Source: Octopus sinensis
Taxonomy: Eukaryota
NCBI RefSeq assembly: GCF_006345805.1
Contig: NC_042998.1
Location: 58,714,001 to 58,778,000, forward strand
Direction: 5' to 3'
Length of the DNA stretch: 64,000 nucleotides
The translations under genes and the position numbers were made by a program. A model generated the notes under the pieces. That model did no database searches, was not told the DNA's origin, and was given only the letters and a program-made list of their open reading frames with translations. Shown in pieces: positions 10,501 to 61,318 of the stretch (position 1 is the stretch's first letter; the number at the start of each line of letters is the position of its first letter).

Positions 10501-13500
10501 CTGAATACTTTAGTTTGGGATTTATTTGTATCAAATTTCTATGAAATAAGCTTTTCAGTGCTCCCAAATTATGGTTGAAGTTTGTAGGAAAAGCTAAACA
10601 AAAATGTAAAGAAACCCCAAAATATAGCATAAAAAACAGCTGTTTCTATGAGGTAGGTTGCCACAATTATTGAATTTGACTGCTCAATTAAGGTTGTTCT
10701 TCTTCACATGCTCTTGCCCAACCATATATATACATACACAAATAGATACATACAATAACACTTCACTTTACTAGGACCCACTGTACGAGACCCTGGGTTT
10801 TGAAATCAAAATCAAATTCGATGACTGGCATCCGTGCTAGTGGAGTGCTAAGAGCACCATCCGAGTGTGATCGTTGCCAGAGCAGCTTACTGGCTTCTGT
10901 GCTGGTGCAGCGCTAAGAGCAGCATCCGAGTGTGATCGTTGCCAGAGCAGCTAACTGGCTTCTGTGCCAGTGGCATGTGAAAAGTACCATTCGAGTGTGA
11001 TCGTTACCAGCGTCACCTTACTGGCACTTGTGATGGTGGCATGTGAAAAAACATTTGAGCGAGGTTGTTGCCAGTGCCGCTGGACTGGCTCCTGTGCAGG
11101 TGGCACATAAAAAGCACCATCTGAACGTGGCTGTTGCCAGTACTGCCTGACTGGCCTTCGTGCCAGTAGTATATAAAAGCAACCACTATACTCTTGGAGT
11201 GGTTGGCGTTAGGAAGGGTATCCAGCTGTAGAAACTCTGCCAGATCAGATTGGAGCCTGGTGCAGCCATCTCGTTCGCCAGACCTCAGTCAAATCGTCCA
11301 ACCCATGCTAGCATGGAAAGCGGACATTAAGCGATTATGATTGATGATTTTACAATAGATATAAGAAGATTAAACAACCATTTTGTGTGTGTGTCGCAAC
11401 ATTGCAACATGTTGCAACACTGGTTCTGATGCATCTACACAGCTGCACATAGCAACGGAATAAAAGCTTCTAAGCAAACAACTCTAGACTTGGTTTTTAA
11501 AAAGAAATCTACTAGTCTGTTTACAAGTGCTTGTGAATTGGTGATCACGTCTACAAGTGATGGTGTCTAGTGCAAGTGAAAGTGATTCAGAAAACGATTA
11601 TAATAATACATTATTTACATTTGACGGATATTTGTCCTCATCTTGTTTGTTGTTAACATAACATTTCGGCCAATATACCCTCCAGCCTTCATCAGGTGTC
11701 TTGGGGAAATTTCAAATCTGGGTTCTCATTACTAAGGTATTATTATTATTGTTTTTATTCAGGTCACTGCTTGGAATCGAACTTGGAATCTTGGGGTTAG
11801 TAGCCCGCAATCTTAATCACAAGATTCTGAGTTCAATTCCAAGCAGTGACCTGAATAATAACAATAATAATAATAATAATAATAATAGTAATAATAACAC
11901 CTTAGGAATGAGAACCCAAGTTCTAAATTTCCCAAAGACACCTGACGACGGTTGGAGGGTATATCAGCCAAAATGTGTTAACAACAAACAAGATGATGAC
12001 AAATATCCGTCAAATGTAAATAATGTACATAATTCCTCATCTCTTAAATATAGAACTGGATTATAATAATGTTTTTTATTATAAATGATCTTGACATTCT
12101 TTTTACTTTAGATAAAATATTCTTTCCATTCTACTGTTGTTTTATTGTCATTTATTCATGAGTGTTATAGATTTTATTGGTAAAATAGTTTTCTGGGAAT
12201 GAATTATGATTTATAACATTACTACTATGAGAAATTATTGGTCTATTTTATGAGATTTTGCTTTATGAGTGGTCTCTGGAAACAAATTAACTTTAATATC
12301 CAGGCATTACTGTATACACACCCGAGGATGAAATCAACATTATATATTGTGGTTGTGTGTGAGATTTGGTAGCCATTTTGATCTGTATCACTAGTGTTAG
12401 TGCTACCTCTCTCTTTTCCTTTCTTTCTTACTCTCAGAATCAACAACCTTGAAAAGACCAAGAAGGGAGTGTCCTCATCATGGTCACACTAAACCTTTCT
12501 CCACCACCCTGACAAAGAAAGAAAGAAAGACCTACTTAATTTTATTGACCCCCACCAGACTTTAAAATGCAAATATCACCTTGTTGGGATTTTGAATATA
12601 TTTAAAATTGCATTTTAAATTTTTTTTTAAATGTTTAAATTAAAAATTTTTTTTAATTTAAAATTTAATATTGCATTTTAAATATATTTAAAATGCAAAT
12701 ATCACCTTGTTGGGATTTTGATTACAACATTGTAATTTAATACTGACTTTATTTAGTCTCCACCAACACCCTAAGTGATATTTGAACTCCCAATAGTAAA
12801 GTACTTATTAGATATTAGAAATCTACTTGTCCTTTTATGAGTACTTTCTCTTTGTTGATTAAACCTGAATGGATGAAATTCAATGTAAGTGGAATTTGAA
12901 TTCAGAGCTCTGACTGTTAGTTTGCTGCCTACAAATCAATTATGGGCTTTTATTTACTCAGCTGTATACTTGGCCCACAAAAGTTGTGGTCTTGTTTCTA
13001 TGTTAGAAATCATTATCATTATTATTATTGAGTGAGAAAGCAGTGCATGCCATCAAAGTGACACTGGATAAAATATTCGATTATTATTAAGGCAGCAAGC
13101 TGGCAGAATTGTTAGCATGCCAGGCAAAATGCTTAGCGGTATTTCGTCTGCTGCTACGTACTGAGTTCAATTTCCACCAAGGTCGACTTTGCCTTTCAAC
13201 TTTTCAGGGTTGAAAAATTAAGTGCCAGGGAAATACTGGGGTCGATGTGATCAACTTACCCGCTCCTGTAAAATTTCAGGCCTTGTACCTATTGTAGAAA
13301 GGATTATTAATGTGATCAAATATTTTAAACTTTATTTTTGTGCTTATGCAGGGCATCACTTATGACACTGGTGGCCACGATATCAAAGCTGGTGGCCATA
13401 TGGCTGGTATGCACCGTGATAAATGTGGAGCAGCAGCAGTAGCTGGATTCTTTAAGGTAAGAAATTTATTTTCATTGATATTGTAGTGGCTGTTAAGGTT

Positions 13501-16500
13501 GGCCACTGTGTGTGTGTGTGTGTGTGTGTGTGTGTGTGTGTGTGGAGTGATATTGGGTGAGCTGTATCCCTATCTGGGCTGTGTGCATTTGGGTGAACTT
13601 CGAGACAAACTCCCTTGGGTAAAGCAGGTAGAGCATCATTCTTGGCTGAGCTGAACCAAACTGAATGAATGCTTTTGAAGATTGATTGTGGTGTGTAATA
13701 AGTGTCTTTAACTCTCCTATCGAATTTACTTGTAATTGTGTAATCTGTCTTTCATTGCAGGTGTTATCTATTTTGAAACCTAAAGGCATAAAGGTAACAG
13801 GATCCATGTCTATGGTACGAAACAGTGTTGGACCAGGTAAGCTGTCTGGCTAGTTGGCTGTCTGTCTGTTTCTCACTTTTATCGGTCAATGTTACCTGTT
13901 ATTTTTGCTTCTACAGGGTGTCCCAAAAGTCACTGATGGGTTTTAATTTTTAATAACTTTCTTAACTTTACAAATAAATGTATGAAAATATGAAAATTTG
14001 ATACAATATAAAGGACATAATCGAAATTAATATGCACAAGTAAAATTTTGCAACATCACCACATCACATATAGAAAATGACATCACTTAAATGGCAGCCA
14101 TTTATGGCTTTGCATGCTTGTGCTCTTTCCAAAACTTGCACCATAACACTCTCAAGAGTTTCAGACCCCACTTCTATGATTTCTCTATTGATGTTCTCTT
14201 TGTTGCACCAGGGTTTCCAGGTTGTTGACGTAAACCCTGTCTTTCAGGTATCTCCACAAGAAAAAATCCGGGTTAGTCAAGTCTGGGGAATGTGAAAGCC
14301 ATTCGAAGTAGATCTCGCATATGGTTGTGCTTGAGAAGACTCGTCAAGCCAGGTGAAATCGTAGTTATGGTTGTTGCTAGTGTCCTGTAAATGGTACCTG
14401 TGAAATTGTAGTCGTGCTGTTGCTGGTATGTAAATGACACCCATGCCAGTGGTACATGACAAGCACCCATTACACCCTCAGACTGGTTGGCATTAGGAAG
14501 GCATCCACCAATAGAAACCATGCTAAATCAAACTCCAGCATGGAGAGTGGACATTAAATGATGGTGAACTGTTAGGCATCTGATCACATTGTCCCACCAA
14601 ATTCAGTTTGTTGCCTCGTTTAGTGAGGTTCAATTTATCTGCTACAGTTTATTTAACCTTCCTAATAATCTCCCATTTTATTTGGAAGAGCATCTAATTG
14701 TGAAACAATTTCTTACCCTTTAAAATATAATTTGTAGGAAACATAGACAAAAAGATAGACATTCAGTATTTAAAATAACATTACAAATTTAAAGATTATT
14801 ATTATTACATTGAATTTTAGTGCTTTTTTTTTATTAAGGTTTTCTGATCAATTTTCTTAATTCTATTGTCTTTTTTGTTTTATTCTGTTTAATCAAATAT
14901 TGTTCAGTTATGACCATCCATCTTTTATTCCCACATAGTGTTTCTAGGACTACATTATTCAATGTCTGCTTCTAAGACAGTAAGGCAATTATTTACGTAA
15001 ATACTTCAGTAAGGCAATTATTTACGTAAATACTTCTTCACTGATCTGTAATATGATATTTTTTTTTGTTGGAGAGTATATATCTTTTAGGATTAAAGAC
15101 CTGTGGTTTCATTGTATAGTTTAAGGGAAATTTGGTGGATCTACAACTACATAGACATACATGCCTGTTTTATGAGTATAACGAAGTGTAACAAATTTGC
15201 ATTTATTTAATATATATATATATATATATATATATATATTGCAAGTTTCATGGAGGTGGTGACAAATGACCAAGGCTTCCAGTGACACTGTGTTTGGGAA
15301 GATGCATCAAGCTTAGTGAAATTGTGGCCAGTGCTGGTGACTTGTAAATAGCACCCAGTACACTCTGTAATGTGGTTTGCATTAGGAAGAGCATCCAGCT
15401 GTAGAAACAAAGCCAAAACAGATGACTGGGTCTTGGTGCAGCACTCTGGCTTGCCAGCTCCAGTCAAACCATCTAACCCATTCCAGCATTGAAAATGGGT
15501 ATTAAATGCTGATGATAATGATGCTCATAACTGTTTTATTGGTTATTTTCCTAATTTATTCTTTGAATTCTTTTATAGATGGCTATGTTGCCGATGAGAT
15601 CGTTACCTCTCGCTCCAATGTCCGGGTTCGTGTTGGTAACACTGATGCCGAAGGAAGAATGGTGATGGCTGATTTGTTGTGTTACATGAAAGAACAGGTT
15701 TGTAATTATTCTTGTTTTGATTGTAGACCAGAATGCTGGTGAACATATTGAGAGCATAGCTCCAAATCTGTAATTGTTTTGTGTTGATTGATCTTGCATC
15801 GTTTATAATAAGATCACTTGTTTAGGGCTGAAATGTTTATAAACTTAAAAAAAGAAAATTAATGAAAAAAGGAAAGGAAATTGCTCTTTTGGCCCTGTGC
15901 TATATAGTGTTACCATGAAAGAACAGTTTTGTATCATAGAACCAGTGGTGGTCTGGTGTCAAAAAGATTAAGATGTATGATGGTTTTAGATGTGTTGTTC
16001 TTGAAAGTATGATGTTTATGAAAGGGATTGTCATGCCTTTCCTGAAGGAACTTGTGATACCACAAAATGAAATTAGAACACTCAGGAACTATAACATATT
16101 ATTAAGTCAGTAGAAATGTCAAAAGGTTAAAGAATCCCTTCAGTCACAAATGACCATGGGATTGCACCTAGAAGGTGCACAAGTCTGGGCAGGGTTGTTT
16201 ATGGAAGACCAAGAGTCACCCATGCATACCAGCCTCCCCTTTCCATGCCACTGATGTTGTCCAAGAGAAAGGCATAGACTGATACTGCTTGGTACCAGTG
16301 ACATTGCAACTCATTTCTACAGTTGGGTGAACTGGAGCAACATGAAATAAAGTGTCTTACTCAAGAACACTCTGCCTCGTCTGGGAATCGAACCAACAAC
16401 TTCATGACTAATAGTCTGACACTCTAACCACTGAACCATGAGATGTCAAAATACCGAGATATTGTTGATCAGTCATTGACACATCTGAAGAAATGCTACT

Positions 16501-61224: not shown

Positions 61225-61318
61225 CTTCCCTGAAGAAGGAGGCTCGTTTCATCCTATGATGGAATTAATCTACAAACATTAGTATGGTTCGCCGAGCCCC
61301 TTGAAACAGTAGTTGGAT
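61225..61318 (+). ncRNA. hammerhead-like motif (C3-G8) in a probable PLE terminal repeat
   Basis: TCC-CTGAAGA-AGGAGGCTCG...CGAGCCCCTT-GAAAC-agta-GTT-GGA. Confidence 0.55.

Follow-up and report, generated by a model that had tools for sequence, protein, structure and literature searches.

Hammerhead-like motifs with differing 3-8 pairs at probable Penelope-like element ends in the Octopus sinensis genome

Minimal type I hammerheads in the pseudo-long terminal repeats (pLTRs) of metazoan Penelope-like elements (PLEs), U3-A8 forms included, have been known since 2014 (Cervera and De la Pena, PMC4209133). According to the portions of the literature drawn on here, to which all our statements on cited papers refer, these ribozymes show no activity as monomers and weak activity as dimers joined through a palindrome (PMC4209133; PMC6765202). 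Cleavage is slow and requires help, and insertion in vitro can do without it; the PLE hammerhead of PMC11167929 cuts only when the PLE protein is present, insertion there uses uncut RNA as its template, and a C3G/G8C double mutant partly restores cleavage. In this study, we analyzed a 64,000-nucleotide stretch of the Octopus sinensis genome (contig NC_042998.1, positions 58,714,001 to 58,778,000; hereafter the window) in which an earlier note had pointed out five hammerhead-like loci. Judging from the sequence comparisons below, it is quite probable that these loci are truncated 3' ends (pLTRs) of five different PLE families and that the 3-8 pair of the core differs by family and is likely selected.

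Small PLE-associated hammerhead variants with a short palindromic stem III and dimer cleavage were reportedly described by Lünse et al. in 2017. The octopus motifs share type I topology, a short stem I, an optional bulge after A9 and a palindromic stem III with the minimal hammerheads of PMC4209133, as well as the pLTR position, the occurrence as single or inverted copies and the U3-A8 pair (about 1,300 matches in Schistosoma mansoni). However, G3-C8, A3-U8, A13C and U.U or C.A at 10.1-11.1 do not appear in the compared portions of that paper, and here, unlike there, a single genome holds all four Watson-Crick pairs, which change from one sister family to another. The U3-A8 covariation and the natural, tolerated U10.1.U11.1 of Perreault et al. 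2011 (PMC3088659) were also found in octopus, whereas the compared portion of that paper holds no G3-C8, A3-U8 or A13C. U3-A8 in PLEs and U10.1.U11.1 are thus already published (PMC4209133; PMC3088659). G3-C8 is an engineered rescue in PMC11167929, but a fixed natural state of one octopus family (65 of 67 copies). In the literature compared, G3-C8 was found only in engineered form (PMC11167929, PMC8495972, PMC3884650) and A3-U8 was not found; the comparison, to which PMC11014351 and PMC6962438 contributed nothing further, excluded Lünse et al. 2017, Przybilski and Hammann 2007, Hammann 2012 and the figures and supplement file 1 of PMC4209133, where such variants may occur. Natural family-fixed G3-C8 and A3-U8 are thus provisionally new.

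Five hammerhead-like loci and their repeat families

All five motifs were found where the earlier note had placed them, with the claimed letters at positions 3 and 8 and with GCAA at 57511, and the hammerhead-like layout held at each. Locus 1 lies on the minus strand (11655-11700, N3=11695) and loci 2 to 5 on the plus strand. Locus 1 is a C3-G8 minimal hammerhead with a bulged A and G10.1-C11.1, in which the palindrome and stem I show CpG-type decay. Locus 2 (17581-17627) pairs G3 (17586) with C8 (17591) and has a bulged G, a palindrome, GAAA at 17613-17616 and a predicted cut after 17622; this copy has a mutated G10.1. Locus 3 (33595-33636) is a minimal hammerhead with U3 (33600), A8 (33605) and U10.1.U11.1, and has lost U16.1. 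Locus 4 (57486-57525, N3=57491) carries U3-A8, GCAA (A13C), a CCGG palindrome and a stem I of 2 bp in register. Locus 5 (61225-61318, N3=61230), inside an old element at about 61199-61600, is a C3-G8 hammerhead with a 3-bp stem I and a long stem II closed by a loop of ~45 nt.

Loci 1, 2 and 4 proved to be arms of long inverted pairs, whose twins were absent from the earlier note. The twin of locus 1 (11878-12060, plus strand, N3=11942) contains a decayed hammerhead and a long 3' tail, that of locus 2 (17350-17565, minus strand, N3=17549) a G3-C8 hammerhead and a full tail, and that of locus 4 (57282-57400, minus strand, N3=57395) a short 3' end.

The window copies are mostly decayed; the damage at loci 1, 3 and 5 (palindrome, U16.1 or stem I) is copy-specific and absent from most family members. 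A strict Watson-Crick descriptor gave no matches in the window, and its G-U-tolerant version matched locus 2 only. A minimal hammerhead descriptor without a 3-8 requirement gave two matches (locus 2 and its twin), compared with a mean of 0.125 and a maximum of 1 in 40 dinucleotide shuffles. No hammerhead was among the Rfam matches listed for the window (150 of 195), and Rfam likewise found none in intact copies of locus 1, of locus 2 and of an A3-U8 family introduced below. This silence was not counted against the fold, because a canonical copy of the locus 1 family was missed too. As the window copies are weak singly, proof against chance rests on the families.

Between 368 and 994 candidate relatives per locus were obtained at first look, and 40 were scored. 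The copy sets of the five families (F1 to F5, numbered as the loci) were assembled from sequences similar to the respective window copy; F2 loci L151-L180 alone were selected by an upstream pattern (664 genome matches). F1 showed C3-G8 in 44/46 copies, with a 5-bp stem I, CUGAUGA, a bulged A, a 5-bp stem II and GAAA-CG-UU. The G3-C8 state of F2 noted above is accompanied by a 5-7-bp stem I, GUGAACA, a bulged G, G10.1-C11.1 and GAAA-AUAU-UU; G3 and C8 showed no change at or above 5% in contigs from four sequencing runs under four organism labels. All 33 copies of F3 read U3-A8, with UUGAAAA, U10.1.U11.1 and GAAA-ACCGGU-UU. F4 was equally uniform for U3-A8 (44/44), with UUGAUAA, a 4-bp stem II and GCAA-CCGG-UA; it carries A13C in 44/44 copies, and its stem I ends after 2 bp in a C.A mismatch. 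In F5, C3-G8 was present in 26/32 copies together with CUGAAGA, a long stem II and GAAA-CAGCUG-UU, the base of stem II was C.A in 17/32, and the 3-bp stem I was intact in 19/32.

At family level, the type I minimal core (N3-U-G-A-N-N8-A...GAAA...U-H with a Watson-Crick 3-8 pair) is present in F1, F2, F3 and F5; F4 does not conform in core or stem I. Stems I and II and the palindromic stem III are fully paired in F1, F2 and F3, and also in the F2 sister and A3-U8 families described below. The expectation that family consensuses would keep their stems and 3-8 complementarity was borne out for F1, F2 and F3 and, with a stem I of 3 bp, for F5, but not for stem I of F4. Because copies decay neutrally after insertion, counts within a family reveal only the letters of its master element, and the evidence for selection lies between families, not within them.

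The 3-8 pair across families

Further PLEs were gathered via their endonuclease (EN), not via the hammerhead, and downstream regions were scanned without requiring 3-8 pairing. Positions 3 and 8 were complementary in 18 of 19 families, compared with 7.8 expected (0/200,000 shuffles). Without the five families of the earlier note, 13 of 14 were complementary (71/200,000 shuffles), and among multi-copy families alone the count was 10/11 (106/200,000 shuffles); these shuffle figures overstate independence, because the families are related. Families of this one genome use all four Watson-Crick 3-8 pairs: C-G, U-A, G-C and A-U. The claim that the two positions are always complementary thus held for the five loci and for 18 families but not for one exception (group B, below). 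The prediction that a CUGANGA-only search would miss most families was supported, as 12/19 lack this word in a sample that leans to elements findable by GIY-YIG.

U3-A8 was found with unrelated stems in the families of L208, L213, L084, L096, L214 and L215 (L numbers denote genomic loci), and is kept in at least nine families whose EN identity to that of F4 is 44-64%. C3-G8 occurs in L332, group A, L053 and L003, with a link to an open reading frame (ORF) known for the first two only. The sister family of F2 reads U3-A8 in 24/26 copies while sharing the bulged G, and its stem II covaries; the two families share 53% EN identity and 51-57% ORF identity. The A3-U8 family, located outside the window, was uniform in 35/35 aligned copies from 30/32 EN-selected loci (example L347:2066-2102, C12 near 56456880). 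It reads C17, its stem I is 6 bp and its stem II 2 bp long, and G-C/A-U covariation in stem I was observed among copies. On an EN tree with few well-supported branches and two misplaced long branches, which gives no order of events, F2 and its U3-A8 sister were grouped with 100/100 support and the A3-U8 family adjoined F3 (91/94).

Across families with unrelated stems, U4, G5, A6, A9, G12, A14, A15.1 and U16.1-H17 are conserved. Taken together, these comparisons suggest that 3-8 complementarity is likely kept by selection on active master elements.

Association with Penelope-like elements and structure of the copies

A reverse transcriptase (RT) followed by a C-terminal GIY-YIG endonuclease was found on the same strand upstream of the pLTR for all of F1 to F5, as in EN-containing (EN+) PLEs. 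For F2, the EN C-terminus lies 0.8-1.4 kb upstream on the same strand in 7/8 long copies, and L188 contains a 722-aa RT+EN ORF. The F3 motif follows the EN in 9/10 EN-selected loci and in the window itself, where the frameshifted GIY-YIG C-terminus with a CxxxxCxxC linker occupies 32695-33196 (plus strand). RT and EN are upstream of F4 in both long copies (L189, L190; RVT_1 E 3e-5, GIY-YIG E 6e-4), and the F4 ORF is 50% identical to that of F3. The F3 and F4 Pfam matches fall below the curated cut-off, the F2 ORF has no Pfam match and was recognized by motifs and weak blastp similarity, and a Pfam search of window ORFs did not name the GIY-YIG fragment. The motif of F5 was present in 8/20 loci picked by EN or 3' untranslated region DNA, with a decayed Penelope-type EN about 800 nt upstream. 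For F1, RT/EN fragments were found upstream in 4/30 loci; L305 and L319 share 1.5 kb of continuous homology (76.5% identity) running from the ORF through a tRNA-like segment to the motif. F1 and F5 are presumably of the Penelope/Poseidon type. A CX2-5CxxC linker, described for Neptune/Nematis (PMC8557442), is present in F2, F3, F4 and the A3-U8 family.

Two candidate associations were rejected. The Penelope-type RT beside F5 in L261/L262 was inserted separately and has a downstream region of its own, and the young intact-ORF GIY-YIG matches near F2 copies belong to the U3-A8 family of L208. That young family (L207, L208, L271, L345 and many further matches) combines a U3-A8 hammerhead motif with ORFs that are intact over about 780 aa, and is a good candidate for biochemistry. 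The earlier proposal that several distinct ribozyme-bearing, PLE-dependent families coexist stands as regards distinct PLE families with minimal type I hammerheads in their pLTRs; however, most of them represent truncated ends of autonomous PLEs and not separate dependent elements, and the family of locus 1 may be partly SINE-like (SINE, short interspersed element).

Copies of F2 and F4 are 5'-truncated, with inverted arms, an optional 3' tail and (TA)n targets, which fits EN+ PLEs. Their 3' ends are bimodal, at about +124 and at +182 or beyond in F2 and at +113 and +159 in F4. The two kinds of 3' end, the inverted arms and the (AT)n flanks of these copies match published descriptions of PLEs (PMC8557442; PMC11167929), and in the PAc Poseidon PLE (Frangieh et al. 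2024, PMC11167929) two RT start sites likewise yield two 3' ends at AT-rich targets. The 5' ends of short copies lie at a common TCAGAT (26/44 within -23..-19 in F2, 33/47 within -57..-50 in F4; examples in L003 1470-1500, L155-L180 and L058 1450-1460). In F2, this word is preceded by a branch-point-like CTAAC and a pyrimidine tract, and could represent an initiator or a 3' splice site. The short copies of both families run through the cleavage site uncut, which is consistent with reverse transcription of uncut RNA. No pile-up of loose ends at the F2 cut site was seen in sequencing-run contigs, among the matches listed. Head-to-tail tandem hammerhead units, as in non-LTR retrozymes, were absent from the copies seen, all of which were solo or inverted pairs.

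F1 contains a tRNA-like segment and (AAT)n between the PLE endonuclease and the hammerhead (L305, L319, L141, L145), and its short copies often begin inside this segment. A B-box-like motif was found in 20/30 loci and an A-box-like motif in 16/30, and at other loci 3/3 heads were followed by the F1 tail. In the window, the inverted junction (11760-11855) joins 5'-truncated tRNA-like heads with A-box- and B-box-like motifs; fuller copies have a 7-nt anticodon-like loop. ARAGORN called a tRNA in 0/7 F1 loci, and Rfam gave no tRNA match there. This organization suggests that F1 may be a PLE with a captured RNA polymerase III promoter that yields SINE-like copies. The combination of promoter and hammerhead in a short repeat resembles schistosome Sm-alpha SINE-like elements and non-LTR retrozymes (PMC6765202; bioRxiv 2026.07.22.740005), but F1 differs in occurring as dispersed monomers or inverted pairs and in having its head inside the 3' region of an autonomous PLE.

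The window also contains a sixth, decayed hammerhead absent from the earlier note (21817-21867, minus strand, C3-G8, N3=21862), with broken Penelope-type RT/EN fragments upstream (22188-23254, minus strand, by tblastn). At 52593-53070, an inverted pair with (AT)n flanks shows a hairpin, GAAA, a short palindrome and then a CUGANGA-like word; it is possibly a further PLE end whose core was rearranged or lost. The descriptor found no hammerhead core in the palindromic repeats at 20574-20691, 24203-24476, 42711-42822 and 48656-48877. Other retroelement and transposon remains include a 526-aa open frame (58641-60221) that resembles a retroelement ORF1 or gag and weakly matches a CCHC zinc knuckle (E 0.079), and Tc1/mariner-type transposase fragments at 34152-35741, 41047-41460 and 56637-57014 (the last with a weak helix-turn-helix match only).

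Predicted activity and alternative explanations

For family-type F1 and F2, computed folding gave well-populated stems I and II (P at least 0.94). Self-pairing of the palindromes came out at -2 to -12 kcal/mol (F2 sister, +0.4). Self-cleavage of the family motifs is likely; F1, F2, F3, F5 and the A3-U8 family would act as slow, assisted or dimeric ribozymes in tandem master transcripts. Locus 4 had been counted among the ribozyme-bearing loci, which probably does not hold: with A13C in every copy and two in-register stem I pairs, F4 is probably crippled rather than an active ribozyme, and its stem I did not form in the computation (P of the first pair = 0.01). By homology to the L208 and L084 families, the F4 motif is hammerhead-derived. 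Inverted twins give one sense motif per transcript, so no tandem dimer would arise from these loci, and the inverted window loci themselves are probably inert.

Under the explanation we favor, the pLTR of each family carries its own minimal type I hammerhead motif, with a 3-8 pair that differs between families. In tandem PLE transcripts, two motifs would pair via the palindromic stem III and cut slowly after H17; alternatively, a single motif may fold with the help of PLE protein and cut slowly at the same site. A swapped 3-8 pair would keep the 2'-OH equivalent to that of G8 in place at some cost in rate. Most genomic copies would stem from reverse transcription of uncut RNA, beginning at an internal tail site and ending at the TCAGAT 5' end, so cutting would be unneeded for copying and F4 could amplify with its probably crippled core. 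As a whole, this account of PLE pLTR hammerheads whose 3-8 pair varies by family and is likely kept complementary is one in which we have good confidence. A bolder version is put forward tentatively: all four pairs would be in use, and the G3-C8 and A3-U8 motifs would be the first such ribozymes that are natural, fixed in a family and active, having arisen by double transversions between sisters; cores and palindromes may tune the rate or keep dimers family-specific, and the young F4 would have spread after core loss.

Several observations weigh against this account. The 5' ends of copies do not cluster at the predicted cut (within 3 nt in 1/44 F2 and 0/47 F4 copies, in a biased sample), and the scans behind several ENs (e.g., L183, L201, L203, L209, L334, L336) turned up no motif. 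The choice of F1-F5 copies by similarity biases the counts towards the letters of the window copy, and several of the 19 families are represented by just one or two copies (e.g., L003, L053, L214, L215, L332 and the sixth window motif). The families being related, the swaps perhaps amount to three or four independent events. Furthermore, group B (L333, L343, L344, L271) reads U3.G8 or has a one-base insertion, an extra base before UUGAAGA, together with C10.1.A11.1; a subfamily of group A (L328-L342) carries U4C in 5/8 listed copies; and A13C is fixed in F4. Fixed non-canonical cores exist, and may simply be dead.

The same observations bear on the alternatives. The fold could be retained for protein binding or packaging of PLE RNA, with a structural role for 3-8 pairing and negligible cleavage in vivo, which we regard as rather unlikely. 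It agrees with genomic copies that span the cut site, with the recent amplification of F4 (most matches 95-100% identical) despite A13C and a 2-bp stem I, with Naiad PLEs that have no canonical hammerheads (PMC8557442), and with the lizard PLE, in which cleavage requires protein and is dispensable for insertion and no RNA-seq ends were seen at the cut site (PMC11167929). However, a purely structural role would not obviously need the conserved catalytic residues listed above, nor a base other than G at position 17. Neutral decay, in which non-canonical cores hitch-hiked to fixation in master elements once the hammerhead was dispensable, would fit F4, group B and the U4C subfamily, and an AT-rich genome favoring C>U and G>A could yield U3-A8. 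Yet U-A to G-C and U-A to A-U each require two matched transversions, the rest of the core is intact, the stems covary, and U3-A8 has been held across the divergent families named above; this makes decay improbable as the general cause. Chance look-alikes within palindromic repeats resembling miniature inverted-repeat transposable elements might be suspected from the placement of loci 1, 2 and 4 in long inverted repeats, from the window descriptor passing only locus 2 and its twin, and from the silence of Rfam. Nevertheless, each family has its PLE ORF where one would expect it, the inverted arms bear PLE-type two-ended tails, and the shuffle background is 0.125 per window; we give chance hardly any weight, and the family and ORF-linkage results rule it out.

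Compensatory swaps at a catalytic-core pair between sister families provide comparative evidence for selection on the core in master elements. The octopus families also offer natural test pairs, namely G3-C8 F2 against its U3-A8 sister and A3-U8 against U3-A8, with F4 as a natural knock-out. Since CUGANGA-based descriptors and Rfam miss such motifs, PLEs reported to have no hammerheads merit a re-scan that allows any complementary 3-8 pair.

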